Shown: positions 1-11,909 of the stretch, piece after piece
Position numbering within the stretch: the stretch's first letter is position 1
How the letters are laid out: each line of letters opens with the position of its first letter
IMG/VR virus record: IMGVR_UViG_3300046779_000811
Coordinates: 1-34,833 of that record
Strand: one strand, 5' to 3'
DNA from: a virus
Taxonomy: Duplodnaviria > Caudoviricetes
DNA: 34,833 bases
Program-made: the position numbers and the translations under genes
The notes under the pieces: model-generated
Database searches by the model: none
What the model was told of the DNA's origin: nothing
Seen by the model: the letters and a program-made list of their open reading frames with translations, nothing else

Positions 1-1191
1 GTAACATCTTCTCCAGGAGGGTATACTGCTACAGGATCTTCATCACCACTTTCTGTGACAGGTCTACAATCAGATACAGCATACACATTTACAGTTATTG
101 CAACTAATGCTGCTGGAAACTCTGTAGCATCTTCTGCCTCTAATAGTATTACTGCAACAACGGTTCCAGCAACCCCATCTGCACCATCTGCTTCATCACC
201 AAATGCAAATCAGGATGTTATTTCATGGTCAGCACCAGCAAATGGTGGAAGTGCAATTACAAGTTATACATGGCAGTCATCTGATGGAAAGTCAGGATCA
301 ACCAGTGCAACAAGTGAAACCATTAACCAAGAAGCAGGAACGGCACAGACATATACAGTTTATGCAACAAATGCAAATGGAAATTCATCAACATCTCCAT
401 CATCAGGAAGCGTTACTACAACATTCTCATTTGCACCATTCTCAGTCTTCGGATTCTCTCCGTTCTCTGTGTTTGGATTCTCTCCGTTTGGCGTGTTTGG
501 ATTCTCACCATTTGGTGTGTTCGGATTCTCACCATTTGGATTCTCTCCGTTTGGAGTGTTCGGCTTCTCGCCATTCGGAGTTTTCGGATTCTCACCATTC
601 GGATTTTCTCCTGCAGCATACGGAATCAAGTGTATTGACGGAGAAACCTACATTAGAATTAAGCCAGGAGTTGGTTCAGAAGTAACTGATCCAGAAACTG
701 GTATTACAGTTATGAAGAACTCTAACGGTGAAACTATTGCAAAGAAGGCTAAAGACATTGTAATCGGAGATACCGTACAGTCTCTCAACTATGCTGAAAT
801 TGATCAAAGTACACCAGACTATGAGGTCTTTGCATGGAACTCAGAATCTCTTACACCAACAGGCGACACAGAGACAACAATTGTTGACATAGAAGAAAGC
901 GTTAGAAGCCAAACAGTTTGCTTCAATAACGATCAGTCAGCACAGTTCACACTTGAGCACCCAATTCTTGTTAAGAAGACTGTAGACGGAGTTTCAACAC
1001 ACGTCTTCAGCATGGTTGCAGAAGTGGAAGTTGGAAACTCAATCTTCAAGTACAATCCATCAACTGGAACACCTGAAGAGATTGTTGTTAACAGCATTGA
1101 CGTGCTTCCTGGATCTAAGACTGTTTATACATTTAGCGCTGAGCCAGCAGACTTAATCATCGCTGGTGATGTAGTTACTCACAATAAGTAG
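1..1191 (+). CDS. 5'-truncated fibronectin type III domain protein with FGFSP(FGV) tandem repeat and C-terminal Hint domain; probable virion-associated protein
   Basis: Frame is open from base 1 (VTSSPGGYTATGSSSPLSVTGLQSD), so the start lies upstream of the window. FN3 signatures: VTGLQSDTAYTFTVIATNAAGNS, ISWSAPANGGSAITSY, YTVYATNANGNS. The repeat and Hint motifs follow. Confidence 0.85.
   Translation, partial: VTSSPGGYTATGSSSPLSVTGLQSDTAYTFTVIATNAAGNSVASSASNSITATTVPATPSAPSASSPNANQDVISWSAPANGGSAITSYTWQSSDGKSGSTSATSETINQEAGTAQTYTVYATNANGNSSTSPSSGSVTTTFSFAPFSVFGFSPFSVFGFSPFGVFGFSPFGVFGFSPFGFSPFGVFGFSPFGVFGFSPFGFSPAAYGIKCIDGETYIRIKPGVGSEVTDPETGITVMKNSNGETIAKKAKDIVIGDTVQSLNYAEIDQSTPDYEVFAWNSESLTPTGDTETTIVDIEESVRSQTVCFNNDQSAQFTLEHPILVKKTVDGVSTHVFSMVAEVEVGNSIFKYNPSTGTPEEIVVNSIDVLPGSKTVYTFSAEPADLIIAGDVVTHNK
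424..612 (+). repeat. Coding tandem repeat of 24-nt and 15-nt units: FSFAP x1 and FGFSP x8, six of the nine units followed by FSV or FGV
   Basis: Direct translation: FSFAP FSV FGFSP FSV FGFSP FGV FGFSP FGV FGFSP FGFSP FGV FGFSP FGV FGFSP FGFSP (63 aa, 24 Phe, no charged residue). Third codon positions vary between units. Confidence 0.97.
631..1185 (+). other. Hint (Hedgehog/intein/BIL-like) autoprocessing domain, 185 aa, with no homing endonuclease
   Basis: Block A CIDGETYI (Cys1 at 631), KKAKDIVIGDTV, block B FTLEHPILV (TxxH), VAEVEVGNSI, block F/G VYTFSAEPADLIIAGDVVTHN. Only Lys and the stop follow. Confidence 0.88.
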
Positions 1192-1196
1192 CATAA

Positions 1197-1865
1197 ATGC
1201 GTGGGGATAGAAATCCTAAAGCATCTACTTTTTGGTTAACTTCTTCAGACTTGTCTTTTTCAGACATAGTTAACAAAAGTAACTGTAGAAGGCTGTATGT
1301 TGAATATCAATATGTTTTGTCTAACGATAAGATTAAAACTTCGGTTTTAAAACCTATTAATGACTATGCTTATAATCTGTATCCAGCACCAGATCTAGTA
1401 AAATATGAAGATGGATTTATATATTTGAGACAAAAAACTCATGCTGAGATGTGGATTAAGAAAAACTATAATGAAGGTTTTTACTTTTTAGATCGACCAC
1501 ACATTAGACAATTTTACCCCTCTTCGGAGATATTAAAAGACGATAAGTGCTTCTTGCCAACATTTAAGTTCTACTGTCCATGGTTTGTTGACATTGATAG
1601 AGAGTACGAGTTGCTGCAGGTTACAGATGTAGAGACCCCATTCCTTATTAAGGAGTTAAAGTTAAATAGGATAGATACAAATAGAGATATTCTAGAGCCA
1701 CACTTTGTGCCATTCCTATTTAAAAAAGTCGGGGATCATATGATAAATAAAGACTATGGTAAAATTAGTATAGGTACACCTATGTATGACATTAAGATGA
1801 AGGTAAGCGAGTCAGAGTATGACTTGTTTGTTAAGTTTTATAGTCAATATAGCAAGAGTAAATAA
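1197..1865 (+). CDS. Hypothetical protein, probable diverged paralog of the two downstream dUTPase-fold-like proteins
   Basis: 222-aa ORF, start uncertain. FKFYCPW, ETPFLI and YGKISIGTPMYDI correspond to LRINPMW/TVPFTL/GVIEKGTPIAQV and FGFRMHW/DLPFLV/GTIPRGTPIFQL in the next two ORFs. Confidence 0.6.
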   Translation: MRGDRNPKASTFWLTSSDLSFSDIVNKSNCRRLYVEYQYVLSNDKIKTSVLKPINDYAYNLYPAPDLVKYEDGFIYLRQKTHAEMWIKKNYNEGFYFLDRPHIRQFYPSSEILKDDKCFLPTFKFYCPWFVDIDREYELLQVTDVETPFLIKELKLNRIDTNRDILEPHFVPFLFKKVGDHMINKDYGKISIGTPMYDIKMKVSESEYDLFVKFYSQYSKSK

Positions 1866-1878
1866 AGATAGGAACACA

Positions 1879-2598
1879 ATGCCAAATATAGAGTTTCACC
1901 CTTGGAGTGAAGACGCTGAACTTCTGGTTAACAAGCCAACACCAACTAAACAAAATGTTCCAGACTGGTACAGAAAACAACCGTCATACGTTAATAAAGA
2001 TGAGTTCTTAAAGAAAGGCGTTTCTGGCTCTACGATCAAAAAGTGCATGCCTGTTTTTGATGCTATGACGGCTGGTTATACTATTTACTGTCCAGTTGAC
2101 ATTTATGTTGATGCAACTGACCCTTTAAAACTTGAGTACAATATTCCAATCGCTATTGCAGGTTTGAAGAAAGAGATTTTTACAACTCACTCTCCAGAAC
2201 AGGTTACCCACTATCCAATGGCAAGCAGTGTCCACAAGGATGTTCTGAGAATTAATCCAATGTGGTCAGTCAAGACATCTCCTGGATATAGTTCTTTGTT
2301 TACGCCACCAATGCATCAGGCAACAGTGCCATTTACTCTTGTTCCTGGAATTATTGATACAGACTCTTATATGAGTGAAGGGTTTTTGTCATTTAAGATT
2401 GATAACACATTTAAGGGAGTAATTGAAAAGGGTACTCCGATAGCGCAGGTTATTCCATTTAAGAGAGAGTCTTGGAGTAGCGAGATTATTGAGTATGAAG
2501 ATTCAAAAGAAAATCAAAAACAACAAAGAATGTTGATTAGAAGCAAATTCTTTAATTATTATAAGAATTACTTTTGGCACAAGAAGGAATGGCATTGA
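1879..2598 (+). CDS. Conserved phage protein, dUTPase-like fold (DUF6065-like), function unknown
   Basis: Start moved to ATG 1879 (AGGA upstream, no overlap). Motifs PDWYRK, TIKKCMPVFDAMTAGY, WSVKTSPGYSSLF, PGIIDTD, IEKGTPIAQVIPFKRESW. Confidence 0.7.
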   Translation: MPNIEFHPWSEDAELLVNKPTPTKQNVPDWYRKQPSYVNKDEFLKKGVSGSTIKKCMPVFDAMTAGYTIYCPVDIYVDATDPLKLEYNIPIAIAGLKKEIFTTHSPEQVTHYPMASSVHKDVLRINPMWSVKTSPGYSSLFTPPMHQATVPFTLVPGIIDTDSYMSEGFLSFKIDNTFKGVIEKGTPIAQVIPFKRESWSSEIIEYEDSKENQKQQRMLIRSKFFNYYKNYFWHKKEWH

Positions 2599-3326
2599 CC
2601 AACATAATAAGATTCTTACCAAGTGATATTGATATGTACAATAATCTGGATGTGCTTGCACCAGAGCCTGCTATCAAACATATCCCAGAATGGTACAAAG
2701 ACTTAGCACAACATTACAACACTAATAACGTGGAGTTTTTAAACCCAGTAAACGATAGGGGTACAGATGGTGCCAACGTATCAACAAAGATGTGCTATCC
2801 ATTTCGAGATGCAATGACTGCTGGATACATGTACCGTCTTACAGAAGATCTTCATGTATCATTAAATCCAGATGGCAAACCTATTATTTCTTGGGATAAT
2901 GAAAATTTTTTAATTTTAGATAAGCGGTATATTGCTGACATTCCTATTCCAAATGGATACCACCCCATACATTTTGGTTTTAGAATGCACTGGTACTACG
3001 AAACACCACCAGGCTATTCAGTTTTATTGACCCATCCAATGAATAGATTTGACCTGCCATTTCTTGTTCCTTCTGGAATAATCGAATCAGACATAATGGG
3101 TATTCCAGTTTTTGTAACATTTTTCTTAAAGAAGGAGTTTATAGGAACTATACCAAGAGGCACACCAATCTTTCAACTTGTCCCGTTTCAACGTGAAAAC
3201 TGGAAAAATGAAATATGTACAGATGAAAAAGAAATAAACAAAAAAGACTATGAACTAGAAAATAGACGTAGTAGGCTTTTTGGGTACTACAAGAAGCATG
3301 CGTGGAGACGCAAGGAATACTTATAG
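2595..3326 (+). CDS. Conserved phage protein, dUTPase-like fold (DUF6065-like), paralog of 1879-2598
   Basis: TTG start overlapping the upstream stop with AAGGA 6 nt upstream; ATG 2589 is an alternative. Motifs PEWYK, TKMCYPFRDAMTAGY, WYYETPPGYSVLL, SGIIESD, IPRGTPIFQLVPFQRENW. Confidence 0.7.
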   Translation: MTNIIRFLPSDIDMYNNLDVLAPEPAIKHIPEWYKDLAQHYNTNNVEFLNPVNDRGTDGANVSTKMCYPFRDAMTAGYMYRLTEDLHVSLNPDGKPIISWDNENFLILDKRYIADIPIPNGYHPIHFGFRMHWYYETPPGYSVLLTHPMNRFDLPFLVPSGIIESDIMGIPVFVTFFLKKEFIGTIPRGTPIFQLVPFQRENWKNEICTDEKEINKKDYELENRRSRLFGYYKKHAWRRKEYL

Positions 3327-3340
3327 TGTATAATTATAAT
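3326..3340 (+). promoter_or_regulatory. Putative -10 promoter element (tandem TATAAT)
   Basis: GTG-TATAAT-TATAAT between genes, then AAGGAGA RBS (3348-3354) and ATG 3359. Confidence 0.5.
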
Positions 3341-3358
3341 ATGTTCAAAGGAGAAAAC

Positions 3359-3982
3359 ATGAAAGAGCACAAATTTTTTGATAAGCACTTGGATATCAAC
3401 ACAGAAAATCTTGCCAAGTACTTATTGCTACAATCAGACAGAATTAAGGATGCAACCCTTCCAGGTATTAAGACACTAGGAGAAAAAGAATTCTGGGTTG
3501 AGTCAGGAAGCATTTCTACTGTAAAGTGGAGAGAGTACAATGTATTTCAATTCCTTAATAAGGATATATATAAGTTATACAAGAGCATTTCTGAGGTTAC
3601 ACGAGAGGCTTGCGAATACTATAATATCAATTTTGAAGAACAAAACTATATGGTTCAGGGATGGTTTAACGTTAACTATAATAAGACTGGTAAGTTAAAT
3701 TGGCATGATCATGGTGGACCATTTGCACCTCACTTTCATGGCTACTATTCTGTTAAGGCAGAGCCATCTGTAACATACTACAGAATCTACAACGATCCCT
3801 CACGTGAAGTAGCAAATCATAATATTGATAACAGAATGATTATTTCTGAAATGGGTCACCCACATGCACAGGCAGACTGGGACTGGGATGGTCCAAGAAT
3901 TACTGTTGCATACGACATTGTTCCTCTAGAGTCTTTGATTGCTTCAAATACATCAGAACAGCATTGGTTGCCACTACTATGA
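3359..3982 (+). CDS. Putative 2OG-Fe(II) oxygenase, HxH type (TIGR02466-like)
   Basis: Start at ATG 3359 after the AAGGAGA RBS. GWFN...WHDH...FHGYY...GHPH...RITVAYD gives an HxH...H triad and an Arg for 2OG binding. Confidence 0.7.
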   Translation: MKEHKFFDKHLDINTENLAKYLLLQSDRIKDATLPGIKTLGEKEFWVESGSISTVKWREYNVFQFLNKDIYKLYKSISEVTREACEYYNINFEEQNYMVQGWFNVNYNKTGKLNWHDHGGPFAPHFHGYYSVKAEPSVTYYRIYNDPSREVANHNIDNRMIISEMGHPHAQADWDWDGPRITVAYDIVPLESLIASNTSEQHWLPLL

Positions 3983-4614
3983 TAGAGAAGCCAAAGCATA
4001 AGTTCTTTGAAAGAACTCTTAATAATGATCTAGAAGCACTCACAACCTTTCTGTCACAAAAGATGTCAGAGTTTTCAGAAGGAAAGGTTCCAAATGTAAC
4101 AAAAGAGCAGTATGATAAACTAATTGATGATGCAGTTGCAACCAAACTTGGTCAGCACTATAACATCTTTCAGTTTCACAATAAGGAAATTCACAACCTT
4201 TATTCTGCGGTATCAGAAATGATCAAGGAAGCATGCGAGTACTACGGTATTGACTTCAAGGCAGAAAACTATATGATTCAGGGTTGGTTCAACTTTGACA
4301 GATATAAGAAACCAGAACCATTGCCAGATCGATACCTGCATGATCATATGGATGGAAAGGGTGCTCCAGACTTTCACGGATACTATTGTGTCAATGCTGA
4401 ACCATCCCACACATACTATAAGATTGGTGGCATGGATGGAGAAAGATTTGCAAATGTCAATAAAAACAATCGTGCAATTCTTTCAGAAACTGGACACCCT
4501 CATGGGATTCAAAGTTGGGAAAGGGAAGACTTCAGAATTACAATTGCTTACGATGTAGTTCCTTTAAATGAGATTCGCCTTTCACCAGAACAACACTGGA
4601 TTCCGCTTGCATAA
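3979..4614 (+). CDS. Putative 2OG-Fe(II) oxygenase, HxH type (TIGR02466-like), paralog of 3359-3982
   Basis: ATGA overlap start at 3979. GWFN...LHDH...FHGYY...GHPH...RITIAYD, collinear with the upstream gene over its full length. Confidence 0.7.
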   Translation: MIEKPKHKFFERTLNNDLEALTTFLSQKMSEFSEGKVPNVTKEQYDKLIDDAVATKLGQHYNIFQFHNKEIHNLYSAVSEMIKEACEYYGIDFKAENYMIQGWFNFDRYKKPEPLPDRYLHDHMDGKGAPDFHGYYCVNAEPSHTYYKIGGMDGERFANVNKNNRAILSETGHPHGIQSWEREDFRITIAYDVVPLNEIRLSPEQHWIPLA

Positions 4615-5471
4615 TGAAAAGTAAAATATTAGTTCACATATATTCATACAAAGACTCTGAACTAATAAATACTATAGATGCGCTTTTAGATAATGTAAGC
4701 CAAACTAACTTAGTCGATATCTACGTAGACGATCAAAATAATTTAACTAGATACGAAAAGTTTTTAAAGCACAAGAACGTATTCTATAACCCTGTATGGT
4801 GGGATGACTTGCTTAGTCCTTTATCATACAGGGCTTCTTGTGTCCACGCTAAGCAACATGAGGGCTATGACTACTTTCTATTTATATCTAGGGCAACAAC
4901 ATTAAGCAAAAATTGGGATGAAGACCTGATTTCTTTATTGCCAGAGAAAGCAGTTCTTTCTGGTAAAGGTTCGGTAGAGTGCTATGTTAAAGACAATTTT
5001 TATATTCAAAAAGACAGGTCAGATTCAGACGATATCACAAATACAGGTGTAGTTGATCAATCTTTTATTTTTGGTAGGTTTTCAGATTTGTTAAGTGTTC
5101 ACTTGCCACATGAGTTAAAATTCTTTGGTATCGATGAGTATCTGTCGATGTCATTTTTAAATCAGGGGATTGAGGTGTACAGCCTTCCTTCAAACTATTA
5201 TAACCAAGAGCCAGATAACCTAATTACAAAAGATTATGTTCCATTCTCTCTTAACCACAACTACAACCTAGTTATTGATATACTTAAGGGAAATACTACA
5301 TCAATTTTAAAGTACGAATCTCCTAATAAGTTCCTTGATAAAGTTAATATTAACGTCGAGGACCTGTATCGTCTGCCATTTGATTTTAACGATATTGAGT
5401 ATGACAGGTTTTCTGAATTAGACTTGGTTGGTGGAGTAAGGTATATTCAAAAAAGAGATAAGGTTTCATAA
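4614..5471 (+). CDS. GT60-like (Skp1-hydroxyproline GlcNAc-transferase-like) GT-A glycosyltransferase, possibly degenerate
   Basis: ILVHIYSYKDSELINTIDALL resembles the IFVSIASYRD motif; YFLFISRATTLSKNWDEDLI resembles YxLQIDSHxRFxxxWDxxLI; FIFG...LKFFGIDEYLSM...QGIEVYS resembles FGEE...THGxDxY. Confidence 0.65.
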   Translation: MKSKILVHIYSYKDSELINTIDALLDNVSQTNLVDIYVDDQNNLTRYEKFLKHKNVFYNPVWWDDLLSPLSYRASCVHAKQHEGYDYFLFISRATTLSKNWDEDLISLLPEKAVLSGKGSVECYVKDNFYIQKDRSDSDDITNTGVVDQSFIFGRFSDLLSVHLPHELKFFGIDEYLSMSFLNQGIEVYSLPSNYYNQEPDNLITKDYVPFSLNHNYNLVIDILKGNTTSILKYESPNKFLDKVNINVEDLYRLPFDFNDIEYDRFSELDLVGGVRYIQKRDKVS

Positions 5472-5514
5472 AAGAGTTTTTTGTTTAAAGAAACATAAAG
5501 TATTGGTTTAGGGT

Positions 5515-5539
5515 AGAGTTTTGCTTTTTGTAAAACTCT
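5515..5539. repeat. Inverted repeat directly upstream of the RNR -10 element
   Basis: AGAGTTTTGC-TTTTT-GTAAAACTCT (10-bp stem with one G:T pair); an extra AGAGTTTT half-site lies at 5473-5480. Confidence 0.7.
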
Positions 5540-5547
5540 GCTATAAT
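5539..5547 (+). promoter_or_regulatory. Extended -10 promoter TGCTATAAT for the RNR gene
   Basis: Perfect TGnTATAAT in an intergenic gap; GAAAGGA RBS before ATG 5581; the same 12-mer TGCTATAATTAG recurs at 20999. Confidence 0.75.
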
Positions 5548-5580
5548 TAGATCTATTCCGTTTTTGAAAGGACGAAACAC

Positions 5581-7611
5581 ATGTCAGATTTTTTTAGTTT
5601 TAGATTACCAGAGGATTTTGTAGAGAAGTACAAAAACCAAGAAAGTCCATTTGGATTTAAAGATGCAGCAGAAAACTCTCTTGGAGAAATCACTTTTATT
5701 CGCACCTATTCTCGTGTTAAGGAAGATGGAACTAAGGAACGTTGGCACGAAGTTTGTCGTCGTGTAATTGAAGGAATGTACTCAGTACAGAAGAACCATG
5801 CTAAGGAAAATCGCCTACCATGGAATGACTATAAGGCTCAAAAGTCAGCGCAGGAAGCCTTCCAGAGAATGTTTGAACTTAAGTGGACACCACCAGGTCG
5901 TGGTATGTGGACCTTCGGAACACCAATGACTATGGAAAAGCGTAACTCTGCAGCACTTCAGAATTGTGCTATGGTTTCAACAAAGGACCTAGACAAGAAT
6001 GATCCAGGAGCACTATTTGCTTGGGTAATGGATGCTTTGATGCTTGGCATTGGGGTTGGCTTTGATACTGTTGGACAGGAAAAGGGTTTTATTATCTATG
6101 CCCCTACAGAACCTGCATCGATTTATGATATCCCAGACACTCGTGAAGGATGGGTAGAGTCGGTTAGACTTTTGCTAAACTCTTACCTTCGTTCTAATCA
6201 GCCAGTACAGCAGTTTAACTACGACCTTATCCGTCCTCTAGGGGCACCTATTAAAGGCTTTGGAGGGGTTGCTAGCGGTCCAGCACCACTCATTCAACTA
6301 CATACACAGATCGATAAGGTAATCGGCGGTAGAGCAGGAGAAACCCTTGATAGTCGTGCTATTACAGATATCATTAATCTTATTGGTACATGTGTAGTAT
6401 CAGGAAACGTCCGTCGTTCTGCAACACTTGCATTGGGTGCAGCAGGAGATGAAGACTTTATTAACCTTAAGAACGCAGAAGTGTTTCCAGATAGAAACTC
6501 ATTTGACCCAGAGAACCCAGGTTGGGCATGGATGTCAAATAACTCAATTTCTGCAACAGTCGGAATGGATTACGAAAAGTATACAGACCTGATTGTTAAT
6601 AACGGAGAGCCAGGTTTTATTTGGCTTGATGTTGCTCGTAACTATGGTCGTCTAGCAGATCCTGCAGATGGAAAAGACTATCGTGTTATGGGCTTCAATC
6701 CTTGTGCGGAGCAGCCATTGGAGTCGTATGAACTTTGTACACTTGTAGAAGTTCACTTGAATCGACATGAATCCAAGGAGGACTTCCTCAAGACATTGAA
6801 GTTTGCTTATCTTTATGGTAAGACTGTTACATTGCTTCCAACACACTGGCAGCAAACAAATGGTATTATGCAACGCAACCGTCGTATTGGTACTTCTCTT
6901 ACAGGCATTGCCTCTTTTGCAGACCAAAAGGGTTTGCCAGCAGTTCGTGAATGGATGGATGAGGGCTACCAGACAATTCGCAAGTACGATCACTCTTATT
7001 CAGAATGGCTATGTGTTCGTGAATCAATTCGTGTAACAACTGTTAAGCCTTCAGGATCAGTATCAATTCTTTCTGGTGCAACTCCTGGAGTTCACTGGGG
7101 ACCAGGAGGAGAGTTCTTCCTACGTGCCGTAAGGTTTGGTGACACAGACCCAATGCTTCATTTATTTAGAGCAGCAAATTATAATGTTGAAAAAGACGTT
7201 GTTTCAGCAAACACATCAGTTGTTTATTTCCCAATCAAGTCAGGTCACCCACGATCTGAAAAGGATGTAACACTATTTGAAAAGATTGCGCTTGCAGCAA
7301 CTGCTCAAAAGTATTGGTCAGACAACGGTGTTTCTGTAACCCTATCATTTGATAAGGAAACAGAGTCAAAGCATGTTGCTCCAGCACTTCATATGTACGA
7401 AGGACAACTAAAGGCAGTATCATTTCTACCAATGGGAAATACAGTTTATCCACAACAGCCATACACTCAGATTACAGAAGAAGAGTATAATGGATATATT
7501 GGCAAATTGAAGCACATTGACTTTGGAGCAATTTACGACGGAGTAGATAATCTTGAGGCTCAAGGTGAGGCATACTGCACAACAGACTATTGTGAAATCA
7601 AGGTAAAGTAA
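5581..7611 (+). CDS. nrdJ: Class II adenosylcobalamin-dependent ribonucleotide reductase, monomeric RTPR type
   Basis: RTYSR, PPGRGMW, LQNCA, GNVRRSA, GEPG, NPCAEQPL..YELCTL (thiyl-radical Cys), RRIG, TTVKPSGSVS and the C-terminal redox pair CTTDYC. Confidence 0.95.
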   Translation: MSDFFSFRLPEDFVEKYKNQESPFGFKDAAENSLGEITFIRTYSRVKEDGTKERWHEVCRRVIEGMYSVQKNHAKENRLPWNDYKAQKSAQEAFQRMFELKWTPPGRGMWTFGTPMTMEKRNSAALQNCAMVSTKDLDKNDPGALFAWVMDALMLGIGVGFDTVGQEKGFIIYAPTEPASIYDIPDTREGWVESVRLLLNSYLRSNQPVQQFNYDLIRPLGAPIKGFGGVASGPAPLIQLHTQIDKVIGGRAGETLDSRAITDIINLIGTCVVSGNVRRSATLALGAAGDEDFINLKNAEVFPDRNSFDPENPGWAWMSNNSISATVGMDYEKYTDLIVNNGEPGFIWLDVARNYGRLADPADGKDYRVMGFNPCAEQPLESYELCTLVEVHLNRHESKEDFLKTLKFAYLYGKTVTLLPTHWQQTNGIMQRNRRIGTSLTGIASFADQKGLPAVREWMDEGYQTIRKYDHSYSEWLCVRESIRVTTVKPSGSVSILSGATPGVHWGPGGEFFLRAVRFGDTDPMLHLFRAANYNVEKDVVSANTSVVYFPIKSGHPRSEKDVTLFEKIALAATAQKYWSDNGVSVTLSFDKETESKHVAPALHMYEGQLKAVSFLPMGNTVYPQQPYTQITEEEYNGYIGKLKHIDFGAIYDGVDNLEAQGEAYCTTDYCEIKVK

Positions 7612-8141
7612 TGGAAAAAGATACATCTCAGATAAAGTATATAAAAGGCTTTATGAGTCCAGAAGATGCTGAAAGAATTTATCAGCATGCTAAAAAATTT
7701 GATGATGGATTTAATATGCATGGTAATAACGAAAAAGAGTTTAAGGTATACACGTACCACGAGATTGAGGCTAATGAGAAAGAAGTCTTAAACCTAATGC
7801 AGGATTACGCATTTAGAGTTTATGATTATGTTCTTAAAACATACGGTGGACCATTTCAAGAATTCAATCCTCACAAAACTCATATTGCACGTTTTGAGGA
7901 AGGGCATGGAATGCACGATCACTTTGACTCATCACGACCAAACGATATAGCAACACTTGTATATCTTAATAGTGACTATGAAGGCGGAGAGATTTATTTC
8001 CCTGATTACGATATTGTTATTAAGCCAGAGCCAGGAGACCTTCTTTGTTTCCCAGATCAGCCAGCGTATGTTCATGGAGTTAAGACAATTAAGAGTGGCA
8101 CAAGATATACAACACCTCGTTGGTTCACACGCATAGTGTGA
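7611..8141 (+). CDS. Prolyl-4-hydroxylase-like 2OG-Fe(II) oxygenase
   Basis: HFD (HxD), LVYLNSDYEGGEIYFP, KPEPGDLLCFP, HGV, RYT; TAATG overlap with the nrdJ stop. Confidence 0.88.
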   Translation: MEKDTSQIKYIKGFMSPEDAERIYQHAKKFDDGFNMHGNNEKEFKVYTYHEIEANEKEVLNLMQDYAFRVYDYVLKTYGGPFQEFNPHKTHIARFEEGHGMHDHFDSSRPNDIATLVYLNSDYEGGEIYFPDYDIVIKPEPGDLLCFPDQPAYVHGVKTIKSGTRYTTPRWFTRIV

Positions 8142-8156: not shown

Positions 8157-11100
8157 ATGTCTAGTCCATCTAACCTATACGCAGAAAAGGTGTTTGCAGA
8201 ACACCCAATGGCTTTGTGGGCACTAGATGACAAGGTAGATTATATTTCTTTAATTTCTGAGTCTGAGAGAGATCTTTCTTCTTGGACAATTTCTGGCGGT
8301 ACTGCAGAACTATCACCAGGAACCGTAGATGAACCGTTTATATCTAGTCATGTTACTAAACTAATTGGTGAGACAACAGAAGGTATCTACAATATAATAG
8401 AGTGTCGTGGACCAGAACTATTTGACTTACAGGACTTAAATCATGAACTTGGAACATTTGCAATTGGATCATATTTTTACTCTTTAAGTCCATACATTGT
8501 TGGCTTAGATATTGGATACGAGTATTATGATTCTACTACTGGATCTAATGTTCAAAACTTAAAACATTACGACACATCGGTGTATGATAAATGGTTGTTT
8601 GTATCAGAAACCTTTCATATACCGACAGATGATGTGGCAATGAGGCCAGTAATTAAGGTAACATATCTAAATAGTTCAACTCTAGATGAGACGTATGAGT
8701 TTTTAGTTAATGGTTTTTCTATTGGGCAGTGGTCAGAGGAGTTTCACTCTGTGTCTTTAGGCGTTGAGCCAATTGCTTTACCAACCAATATTAACTTGCC
8801 AGCACTAAACGGTATTAAAGCAAATGCATATGGACTACAGGAAAGTTCTGGGTACTATATTCTTGATCAATCATCTTTGTGTGCTAAGAACTCTGGAGTT
8901 CCAATGGTATACGGAGCATCTAACAACACAATCATTGTTCCTAACTCAAACATGTATCCAGGACTAATTGTGCCTGGTCAAGGATTTTTAAATAACTCTG
9001 GAAAGTTTAAAGAGTACACAGCAGAGATGTGGCTTAGAATTAACTCTAGTGCAACTACACTTAAAAGAATATTTGGACCAATTGGATCTAATGATGGCTT
9101 GTATGTAGATGGACCATTTATCAAACTAAAGATATCTGACAACGTAGGGTCTTTTTGCGTGGGGCAGTGGACAAGACCGATGCTCATACATATTAGAATC
9201 ACAAAGAATGCAGCAAGTCTATTGATCAATGGAGAGCAAGTAATATCGCTAGATTTTATAACTGAAGACCTAAGTTTCCCAGACAAAGAAGTGGCTGGAA
9301 AAGATAATGACTGGCTAGCATTTTATGCCTATGAAGATGTATCTCCGCTCGAACTAGACTGTGTTGCAATCTATCCTTATCAGGTTCCTATCTTGGTAGC
9401 CAAGAGAAGGTTTGTTTACGGTCAAGGTGTTGAGATTCCAGAAAATATTAATAGTGCCTACAGTGGTACTTCTGTATTTATTGATTACCCCTTTGCAGAC
9501 TATACTAATAACTACATGTATCCAGATATGGGAAAATGGTCACAAGGTGTTGTTGATAATCTTGCTATAGAAAACAACATGTTGTCTATTCCAGACTATG
9601 CTTTGCCAAACCTTGTTTCTAGTTCTAAAACTCTGGACAACTTTAAGCAGGACAACTATGCAATACAAAATGAAGATGAAGTGTTTATCTCACTATCACC
9701 CAATAGTAGTTGGAACTCTACTAATTCATATTTAATTTTTGATACGATTAACCCCATTGCTGAAGAAACTGCTGCAATTTATGGTGTCTTTAAGTATACA
9801 GAGGTAGATAGTGTTGAAAAGACTTTAATTAGAATAGAAGACCAAAGTACTGGAAACTATCTATCTGTCAACATAAAAGACAATCTTATTAAATACGTTC
9901 TGCAGGTTGAATCAGAATTAAGCACAATTTATCAGTCTGATGCTGTTTTGTTGGGAGATCACTTTACTGCTGGTATCAACCTAAATGATTTTTCTAATTA
10001 CTACGGTGGTAATGTAGCATCTCTTTTAGGTAACAGATCAACACTACGTGTTTATATTGGCGGAGACAAAGAACTACAAAACACCTTTAAAGGAAAGATC
10101 TATAAGATTGTTTTTGATAACGCTAAAAACTTTACAAAAGTTTCAAAACTTTTTAATGAGTCAGGAGTGCCTAAAGAGTATGAGAATGTCTTTAATCAAT
10201 ATGACATGTCAGTGCTTTATGATGCAGGAGATGACTACTTTGGCGAAGATCAATCATTCTGGCAGTACGTCCTCGATGGAGGAAACCCTTCATCTTTTGT
10301 AACAACAAGGATATCTGAGCATAATGGAAGTTATGAGTTGGTTGGATCATTACAGTTTGGTTTGTTTGAACTTGATATAAACGTTTCTAGTTCATGGGAA
10401 GATAACATCCCACTGACATATTTTGCTAAATACGTAACTGACTCAAAGGGCAAAGAGTTGTACGACTTGGACTTCTTGCAGTTTAATATTAACTATCCAG
10501 CACCAATCAAGTATGTTGAGTTTGGAGATTATCAGGGATGGACCTATGCAGAACTTATGTCTAGATACTCTACTCCAGTTCAAAGAACCTATGCCTCTTT
10601 AGACAACCATCTTTATACTGGATACAATAACTACTCTGACTTACTCACTAAGTCATCAAAGAGATATAATCTAGACACCAAGAGGTCACTGGTTAGATCT
10701 TATGTTTCTTTTCAGTACACTGTCGACGGTGCTAACTCAAGCGCAGATTCTTTTAAGTACTCAGTTCGACCAGAAGTTGGTTCAGTAGTTCGCCCAGGTA
10801 CGTACGTTGTTGATAAAGATGAAGATGGAAATAATATCTACGATAGTTTCTTAAATACAAGATATGAGGTTGTCGATAACAGCATTATTTATCCACCTTC
10901 AGGAATTAACTTTAATGATTTATCTTTGGTGGTGCATTTACAGATTTCCGTAAGCAATATTTCTAAGAACCCTCTTAAGGTTAGGTCTTTGCAAATTGCA
11001 TCTCAGGCATTTAATGAATCAGCAAATGAGATAGGCACTAGATTTGGAACACCTATTTATCCATACAAGAAGACTGGTGTTTATTATGACTATAAAACAG

Positions 11101-11909
11101 AGAATCCGTTTAGCATCTATAAAGGAAGTTCCCCTTATCTATACCTAACAAGAGATAGCGGTATTCAGGTCAGAGGTACCTTTGATCCACTAGTTAATAG
11201 AGGGCTTGCTATTCCAATCAACAAGTCCTTGTCCAGTGACTACAAGGTTATGGCAATGCAGATTGCAGTAAGATATGATCAAAGTTTCTTCCCATATGCA
11301 CCAACATCAATTTTTGAAATAGAAAGTCGAAATGGTGTTATTAAATTTTTTATGGTTGCTGATAGTCCAGAAGGACAAAGAGCAAGGGTATATGCAATCA
11401 ATGCTAACACTGGAGAACTTGAAGATGGTATTACCTTCTACCTGAACGGCAATATTGTTAATGATCCAGTATTGACAATTAAGGAGTGGTCATTTATTGG
11501 AATCTCATTTTCTAATCTACTTAACTTCAATAACTTTGTTGGCTCTTTTAGAGTTAACGGACCACTGCTGGTTAACCTGGTATCTAATTACAAGTCGACA
11601 AATCTTCAAGAAGTACAGACAGTGACTACAAGACCTTGGTTTAAGGTTAAGTACTCTGGCGCACTGGAACTAGACTGGGACTTTTGGGATCTAGCCTATA
11701 AGTGGCAAGGTGTGCTTGTTCTTTCCTCAACATCCTACTATGGAGCAAACCCTTCTGATATCTATAAGGCTTATGCTGGAACAAATAAGATTTTGGTCGA
11801 TGACTACAATGAGGCAGAAACTAACCCAAAGATTTTATCGTTTAAAGACTACGAATATAACATTTATAGTGAAATAGAGTGGCAGTCTTCAACGCAAAAC
11901 GCAGTATAA
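8157..11909 (+). CDS. Large virion structural protein with concanavalin A/LamG-like domains
   Basis: 1250 aa, rich in beta-strand and aromatic residues. N-terminal PMALWALDD; LamG-like YTAEMWLRI...HIRITKNAASLLINGEQV and FYLNGN...WSFIGISF. Confidence 0.6.
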   Translation: MSSPSNLYAEKVFAEHPMALWALDDKVDYISLISESERDLSSWTISGGTAELSPGTVDEPFISSHVTKLIGETTEGIYNIIECRGPELFDLQDLNHELGTFAIGSYFYSLSPYIVGLDIGYEYYDSTTGSNVQNLKHYDTSVYDKWLFVSETFHIPTDDVAMRPVIKVTYLNSSTLDETYEFLVNGFSIGQWSEEFHSVSLGVEPIALPTNINLPALNGIKANAYGLQESSGYYILDQSSLCAKNSGVPMVYGASNNTIIVPNSNMYPGLIVPGQGFLNNSGKFKEYTAEMWLRINSSATTLKRIFGPIGSNDGLYVDGPFIKLKISDNVGSFCVGQWTRPMLIHIRITKNAASLLINGEQVISLDFITEDLSFPDKEVAGKDNDWLAFYAYEDVSPLELDCVAIYPYQVPILVAKRRFVYGQGVEIPENINSAYSGTSVFIDYPFADYTNNYMYPDMGKWSQGVVDNLAIENNMLSIPDYALPNLVSSSKTLDNFKQDNYAIQNEDEVFISLSPNSSWNSTNSYLIFDTINPIAEETAAIYGVFKYTEVDSVEKTLIRIEDQSTGNYLSVNIKDNLIKYVLQVESELSTIYQSDAVLLGDHFTAGINLNDFSNYYGGNVASLLGNRSTLRVYIGGDKELQNTFKGKIYKIVFDNAKNFTKVSKLFNESGVPKEYENVFNQYDMSVLYDAGDDYFGEDQSFWQYVLDGGNPSSFVTTRISEHNGSYELVGSLQFGLFELDINVSSSWEDNIPLTYFAKYVTDSKGKELYDLDFLQFNINYPAPIKYVEFGDYQGWTYAELMSRYSTPVQRTYASLDNHLYTGYNNYSDLLTKSSKRYNLDTKRSLVRSYVSFQYTVDGANSSADSFKYSVRPEVGSVVRPGTYVVDKDEDGNNIYDSFLNTRYEVVDNSIIYPPSGINFNDLSLVVHLQISVSNISKNPLKVRSLQIASQAFNESANEIGTRFGTPIYPYKKTGVYYDYKTENPFSIYKGSSPYLYLTRDSGIQVRGTFDPLVNRGLAIPINKSLSSDYKVMAMQIAVRYDQSFFPYAPTSIFEIESRNGVIKFFMVADSPEGQRARVYAINANTGELEDGITFYLNGNIVNDPVLTIKEWSFIGISFSNLLNFNNFVGSFRVNGPLLVNLVSNYKSTNLQEVQTVTTRPWFKVKYSGALELDWDFWDLAYKWQGVLVLSSTSYYGANPSDIYKAYAGTNKILVDDYNEAETNPKILSFKDYEYNIYSEIEWQSSTQNAV

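Follow-up and report, generated by a model that had tools for sequence, protein, structure and literature searches.

The stretch of DNA analysed here (the window) is a complete virus record of a tailed phage, IMGVR_UViG_3300046779_000811, which spans 34,833 nucleotides (nt; 34.8 kb), reaches about 32% genome completeness and carries portal, prohead protease, capsid, tape measure and tail genes. At its beginning lies the system in question: a protein with fibronectin type III (FN3) domains (ORF1), which bears an array of nine Pro-ended, Phe-rich units and a Hint domain, is followed by packed genes for enzyme-like proteins (W2 to W7), a ribonucleotide reductase (RNR) gene and a gene for an oxygenase resembling prolyl 4-hydroxylases (P4H; W9). 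An earlier note on this DNA had described this anatomy, and all of its elements were recovered. It had further proposed that array and enzymes belong together, which is supported by a co-variation of repeat class and enzyme content in related phages; a T4-like group has the same layout. We give an even chance to the explanation that these genes serve the oxidative tailoring of a virion appendage, all of the chemistry being predicted.

ORF1 (nt 1-1191) is open at its 5' end; the complete protein has 455 amino acids (aa). Its FN3 part matches PF00041 (E = 1e-5), and the array (aa 142-205) starts with FSFAP, followed by eight units that end in FGFSP. Because the units use six different codon spellings, the array is a repeat at the protein level. 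Directly 3' of the array, as in the other Hint-bearing family members, follows the Hint domain (nt 631-1188). Hallmarks of such domains are a Cys or Ser at position 1, a block-B TxxH motif and a terminal His-Asn, and ORF1 displays C211, TLEH (TxEH) and H394-N395. These residues, together with fold homology to the solved inteins 7oec and 5bkh (E = 0.007-0.009), place the domain in the Hint superfamily; PF14890 matched 10 of 22 Hint family members. A splicing intein would be followed by a C-extein starting with Cys, Ser or Thr, which is missing from ORF1, where Asn395 is followed by Lys and the stop codon. All 62 distinct domains have either Cys (30) or Ser (32) at position 1, and the two ends co-vary: Cys1 occurs with His-Asn in 28/30 and Ser1 with an Asp ending in 30/32 cases. 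With Cys1 or Ser1, the block-B His, the terminal His-Asn and no C-extein nucleophile, the domain resembles what we take to be the self-cleaving arrangement of bacterial intein-like (BIL) and Hedgehog Hint domains. In contrast to these, the window's family lacks a sterol-binding region, caps a peptide array and is dispensable, and half of it is of the Ser1/xAsp variant.

The earlier note had assigned the Hint domain a role in releasing or anchoring the product, which now appears doubtful. Because the domain lies C-terminal to the array, cleavage by the presumed mechanism would remove the Hint domain while the array stays on FN3; moreover, 11 of 36 FGFxP genes end right after the array, without Hint. 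Since such Hint-less genes exist, the domain would most simply be a removable cap. It is present in 15 of 19 near-complete records, and an ORF1 homologue was found in 17 of these 19 (one of the misses has a sub-threshold copy); in relatives it closes the fibre block, behind Mtd_N and tail-fibre genes. The arrays of the ORF1 family fall into FGFSP or FGFTP, YSFxP, Pro-poor (FGA)n and PPFF types, with unit length and number varying freely, and paralogous Hint proteins bear TIN, NTQ or PT repeats. In some relatives a second Hint gene with Cys-rich modules lies about 9 kb upstream (L011:665-1963, L012:480-1859, L020:620-2083); its arrays are very different (PT, TIN, NTQ or FSVFSF), and P4H-like genes often follow it. 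In another locus (L007:2329-3640), a frameshift within the repeat splits the ORF1 homologue, which may be an assembly slip or a natural Hint-less variant.

Three of the packed genes (W2 to W4) had been assigned a dUTPase fold, which stood for W3 and W4 and is tentative for W2. W3 and W4 match phrog_7084 (E = 1e-48 and 1e-34), which is DUF6065-like (the match to PF19541 stayed below the cut-off), and the W3 model adopts the trimeric dUTPase fold (Foldseek; Z = 11.1, root-mean-square deviation 2.8, 120 aligned). W2 appears to be a degenerate member of the family (profile-profile E = 1e-5); none of 57 W2 sequences matched the DUF-only hidden Markov model at E < 1e-3, and the ESM Atlas returned no family for it. 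The K-x-C and Asp set of W3 and W4 is invariant in 76/76 DUF6065 sequences. In comparison with what we take to be the five catalytic motifs of trimeric dUTPases, W3 retains the motif-3-like Asp and the motif-4 Gln; the RSG motif and the Gly-rich arm are absent. W3-type proteins therefore lack the catalytic motif set of dUTPases, and they did not match PF00692. Exactly three dUTPase-fold paralogues, of the W2, W3 and W4 types, are encoded in 17 of 19 near-complete records, even if split over two loci, which suggests a possible 1:1:1 complex.

W5, W6 and W9 retain the full metal and 2-oxoglutarate (2OG) motifs. The W5 model (pLDDT 90) is a 2OG-Fe(II) double-stranded beta-helix with His ligands and Arg, and W6 is 42% identical to W5. 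Neither protein matched a Pfam or NCBIfam family, nor TIGR02466/PF13759 in hhalign; their best fold matches are 3bvc and 2rg4, presumably structures of the TIGR02466/PF13759 family. Sequence searches of the PDB with the W5/W6 profile and the W7 profile gave nothing meaningful. W9 belongs to PF13640 (HxD...H...R) and matches Tet/JBP only at E = 0.085. It is P4H-like, with a predicted action on peptidyl Pro; the family covers many substrates.

W7 had been called GT60-like, and its fold agrees with this: it is a GT-A fold of the PF11397/GT60 type (ESM Atlas 0.97, TM 0.75; Pfam E = 0.002, under the cut-off). W7 lacks the DxH motif, which we take to be the metal-binding motif of Gnt1. This motif is present in 0/61 W7 homologues compared to 11/11 canonical phage GT60 paralogues, and the site reads ISRA in the window; many W7 homologues retain one acidic residue there, the window's clade none. 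DxH is described as a metal-binding motif for ppGalNAc-Ts in the relevant passages of PMC6939170. The proposed role of W7 as an N-acetylglucosamine (GlcNAc) transferase is less likely than one as an inactive or binding subunit. Some relatives encode a canonical GT60 paralogue with an intact DSH motif upstream of the fibre block (L003:85-1002, L038:1706-2659), which is a better candidate for glycosylating PT-rich repeats. The features of the locus are listed in Table 1; the genes between 1197 and 5471 are separated by gaps of -19 to +14 nt.

Table 1 Features at the start of the window
Feature	Position	Strand	Remark
ORF1 N-terminal part, two FN3 domains, 5'-truncated	1..423	+	FN3 profile; last gene of tail-fibre block in relatives
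Array, nine Pro-ended Phe-rich units (FSFAP; F[SG]VFGFSP x6; FGFSP x2), candidate substrate	424..612	+	
Hint domain, C1...TLEH...HN-K-stop, predicted self-cleaving C-terminal cap, dispensable in relatives	631..1191	+	
W2, degenerate DUF6065/dUTPase-fold paralogue without the conserved Cys	1197..1865	+	weak, profile-profile probability 81
W3, DUF6065 (phrog_7084), trimeric dUTPase fold, invariant KxC; paralogue kept beside FGA/YSFxP arrays	1879..2598	+	
W4, second DUF6065 paralogue, moves together with W2 and W7	2595..3326	+	
W5, 2OG-Fe(II)-fold oxygenase, HDH...H...R; in every near-complete non-PPFF relative tested	3341..3982	+	
W6, W5 paralogue, nearly confined to array locus	3964..4614	+	
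W7, GT60 (PF11397)-fold protein without DxH metal motif, activity doubtful	4614..5471	+	
Class II (B12) RNR, intervening gene, outside proposed system	5581..7611	+	
W9, P4H-like 2OG-Fe(II) oxygenase (PF13640, HFD...H...R)	7611..8141	+	subfamily fills slot preceding 1250-aa gene

Co-variation was assessed by a scan keyed on FN3 alone and blind to the enzymes, which yielded 80 loci with 55 distinct genes (one frameshifted locus was excluded). FGFxP loci were counted as complete if they reached the next structural gene (n = 31): W5/W6-family genes were present in 30, P4H-like genes in 29 and W7 in two of them. FGA loci (6/6) and YSFxP loci (2/2) showed a single DUF6065 gene and neither oxygenase type. 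A pattern scan for PPFF arrays gave 124 loci, among them 36 distinct genes with at least 5 kb downstream; W5/W6, W7 or W2 were next to none of these 36, and P4H genes (3-10 before the RNR gene) together with DUF6065 were found in 32. Genome-wide, W7 and W5/W6 occur in 19/19 near-complete non-PPFF records, many of which were chosen via these genes, and in 0/17 PPFF records, one of which is complete. As PPFF relatives are without them, a status of the enzymes as plain core genes of the phage family was rejected.

The packed genes are not one fixed cassette. W2, W4 and W7 form one block with a different P4H gene; it lies beside ORF1 in the window's lineage and one other and sits elsewhere in most sister phages, in many of them about 60 kb away between a subtilase-like gene and the endolysin gene. 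In near-complete records retrieved by the repeat or FN3 part alone, W7 is present in 8/8 and about 60 kb from the array in 7/8. W3 and W5 swap between the array slot and this distant slot. Of five long PPFF records, three extend over the distant slot, and all three, including a complete one, have nothing in it; G041 and G042 are without the slot marker and uninformative. A phage with a Pro-free array (G019, 89% complete) keeps only W3 and W5 and is without W2, W4 and W7 at both slots, as a single case. As to whether W2, W4 and W7 track proline, 1/14 FGA records reached the distant slot and 0/5 records of the reverse kind reached the array. Among oxygenase loci, W6-type genes were found in 93 of the 119 that contain the FN3 gene compared to 9 of the 62 that do not, the loci being redundant and some of them incomplete. 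The close W9 subfamily (at least 50% identity) occurs only in the slot before a 1250-aa gene. In the window this gene (8157-11909) encodes a conserved protein without Pfam or PHROG match, immediately before the portal block. Further genes in the distant slot are a carbamoyltransferase-like one and several paralogous members of a 280-330-aa family (L133:4336-8552, L089:4589-7915; labels by inspection). Right behind some FGFSP arrays, a sulfotransferase gene (PF03567) replaces W2-W4 (L008-L024, e.g. L012:10741-11457); in similar operons, hydroxylation followed by sulfation was predicted (passages on these operons in Iyer et al. 2010, PMC2938197).

In a portal tree, PPFF phages are nested in two places among the other phages. 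The Hint tree traces FGA and YSFxP back to a single origin apiece. According to the FN3 tree, FGA would have arisen several times; we followed the Hint tree and counted one origin. An RNR tree mixes all classes and was useless for counting events.

A DUF6065 profile scan of genome contigs revealed five loci. One belongs to a T4-like myovirus with neck, terminase and sheath genes, on a contig that is a phage despite being binned in a bacterial metagenome-assembled genome. In this T4-like group (L295:126-9529, L296-L375), the fibre gene is followed by genes for two Tyr/Phe/Pro/Gln repeat proteins, the first of which ends in Hint in this myovirus, and then by GT8, a 183-aa gene, P4H-like, DUF6065, TIGR02466 and neck genes. 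Eighty related loci comprised 20 distinct ones spanning fibre to GT8; repeat proteins preceded GT8 in 20/20, and the first of them carried Hint in 7/20. The group is one syntenic lineage. In a podovirus-like group, DUF6065 follows what appear to be a long fibre-like gene and a small gene. In haloarchaeal viruses it is located three genes from an adhesin gene, on the opposite strand and next to the RNR gene, which is compatible with either a role at the appendage or one unrelated to it; in the cultured viruses of the HF1 group (L380:5854-6696), it lies between RNR and Gly-rich adhesin/tail-fibre genes.

DNA of the window occurs in freshwater or aquatic metagenomes, and a contig from one such public run spans positions 1-3862 unbroken, so this run may be the source sample. 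No RNA datasets were among the listed datasets that contain window DNA. Two observations make an actinobacterium the probable host: the capsid protein shares about 41% identity with its counterparts in large Streptomyces phages, and a WhiB gene is present in one relative.

So far, these findings point to a link between the repeat and its neighbours: because the enzyme set beside the array switches with the repeat sequence across related phages, the orphan oxygenases likely modify the phage's own appendage. In the explanation that we favour, ORF1 likely forms a minor part of a virion appendage, and W6, W9 and W5 probably hydroxylate its Phe/Pro array, with the DUF6065 proteins as their predicted partners. 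An N-S acyl shift at Cys211 followed by hydrolysis would remove the Hint domain and yield FN3-FN3-array, the same product that Hint-less relatives encode directly. W9 may act on the S-P-F prolines, P4H-like genes being located beside FGFxP and not beside FGA or YSFxP arrays, and W5 and W6 may act on the F-small-F motif, W5 being kept in the phage with a Pro-free array. The modified hydrophobic tip would serve adsorption or shielding, and W7, W2 and W4 would constitute a family block that was lost in PPFF phages.

Several observations weigh against oxidative tailoring of the appendage. YSFxP arrays contain Pro yet have no adjacent P4H gene, three full PPFF arrays are without adjacent enzymes, and one phage (G007) has a full FGFSP array but only one W5-type gene. 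Most PPFF records are fragments (38-88% complete), linked genes hitch-hike, and only about three to four contrasts are independent because the Hint tree gives both FGA and YSFxP a single origin. The T4-like group and the siphoviruses may not be fully independent because fibre-gene families are common to both, and W5/W6 gave no alignment to the T4-like TIGR02466 protein. In addition, one to seven PF13640 oxygenases are scattered elsewhere in each of these genomes, and the other repeat proteins (PT, TIN, NTQ) could be the real enzyme targets. ORF1 or W7 homologues were not found in any cultured phage.

A rather unlikely, though serious, alternative is that the enzymes are merely co-inherited with the fibre block and act on nucleotides or DNA, the host envelope or small molecules. 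The dUTPase fold of W3 with its motif-3-like Asp would fit this, as would the absence of the canonical dUTPase PF00692 from 13/13 complete records, the adjacent RNR gene in the window and in haloviruses, and the position of W2, W4 and W7, mostly 60 kb from the array. Likewise, cyanophage Syn9 carries a tandem dioxygenase array with a Cys-bearing dUTPase-fold protein, which was interpreted as secondary-metabolite chemistry (Iyer et al. 2010, PMC2938197). This array is similar to that of the window; it differs in that the passages on Syn9 in that paper describe neither a repeat-Hint substrate nor co-variation with a repeat. However, the kit changes with repeat class even at the distant slot, and DUF6065 is located behind fibre genes in the T4-like and podovirus-like groups and three genes from an adhesin in haloviruses. 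Action on nucleotides or DNA is further at odds with the loss of what we take to be dUTPase motifs 2 and 5, with the added invariant KxC and with the marginal Tet/JBP match of W9.

A full route as for Skp1, in which W9 makes hydroxyproline, W7 adds GlcNAc and a Hint thioester anchors the product, appears improbable. This pathway, with PhyA and Gnt1, is described for Dictyostelium and Toxoplasma in the relevant passages of PMC6939170, and the window shares with it the pairing of a P4H-like oxygenase with a GT60-fold protein. The Pro-free phage without W2, W4 and W7 at both known slots would agree with it, as would the GT8 gene retained beside the repeats in the T4-like group. In contrast to Gnt1, W7 is without DxH in all homologues, is usually unlinked to the array (adjacent in 2/31 loci, about 60 kb away in 7/8 records) and is absent from the PPFF phages (0/17 records), where Pro is richest; GlcNAc transfer by W7 as envisaged in the earlier note is accordingly weak. 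The proposed target also differs, being a repeat on a phage fibre-region protein; furthermore, Hint is not followed by any domain able to supply an acceptor, and 11/36 FGFxP genes lack Hint altogether.

We see similarly little prospect for an assembly aid, in which DUF6065 trimers with the degenerate W2 and W7 would chaperone the hydrophobic array or trimerise the appendage without covalent change. W2 and W7 do look catalytically eroded, the number of dUTPase-fold paralogues is exactly three in 17/19 near-complete records, and DUF6065 is the sole gene kept behind FGA and YSFxP arrays; on the other hand, W5, W6 and W9 have full metal and 2OG motifs and the K-x-C and Asp set of W3/W4 is invariant. 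Excision of the units as a ribosomally synthesized and post-translationally modified peptide, which the earlier note had offered and which the repeated Pro-ended hydrophobic cores beside tailoring enzymes might suggest, is very improbable: the array is fused to FN3 and Hint, which would cut after it, cannot free it; inspection of the block revealed neither a protease nor conserved spacers for cleavage; in 17/19 records the gene keeps its place at the fibre-block end; and unit length and number vary freely.

Tailoring of the virus's own repeats has a precedent in the prolyl 4-hydroxylase of chlorovirus PBCV-1, which acts on viral Pro-rich repeats, although this is a single enzyme of a eukaryotic virus without Hint or DUF6065. 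In bacterial operons, co-encoded collagen-like or tail-collar proteins were predicted to be hydroxylated by the linked oxygenases (Iyer et al. 2010, PMC2938197, passages on these operons). In mycobacteriophages, capsid and tail tube are glycosylated, an actinophage example of virion proteins whose C-termini are modified by phage-encoded enzymes (Freeman et al. 2023 as cited in PMC12619734); the window's candidate differs in that it involves a repeat on a minor appendage and oxygenases and is unproven. A published description of the FN3-repeat-Hint and enzyme architecture, or any literature on DUF6065, was not found in a search whose coverage leaves out most subscription papers.

New here are three findings: two kits exclude each other genome-wide, the GT60 site is eroded, and the T4-like group provides a parallel. 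We regard this as a real, widespread and testable candidate system of viral protein tailoring. It is possible, if somewhat doubtful, that aquatic tailed phages build modified aromatic peptide tips with interchangeable, sequence-matched kits of HxH oxygenases, P4H arrays, Cys-dependent dUTPase-fold enzymes and GT-fold proteins, that a joint exchange of repeat and kit serves host range or shielding, and that DUF6065 is a new class of peptide-acting enzymes. Aquatic phages commonly encode 2OG-Fe(II) oxygenases and DUF6065 proteins as orphans, which are often regarded as metabolic helpers. A repeat sequence that predicts the enzyme set gives these orphan enzymes a defined, short and synthesisable candidate substrate, for which the FGA, YSFxP and PPFF arrays are natural negative controls. 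If true, phage virion modification would extend from capsid glycosylation to the oxidative tailoring of appendages.

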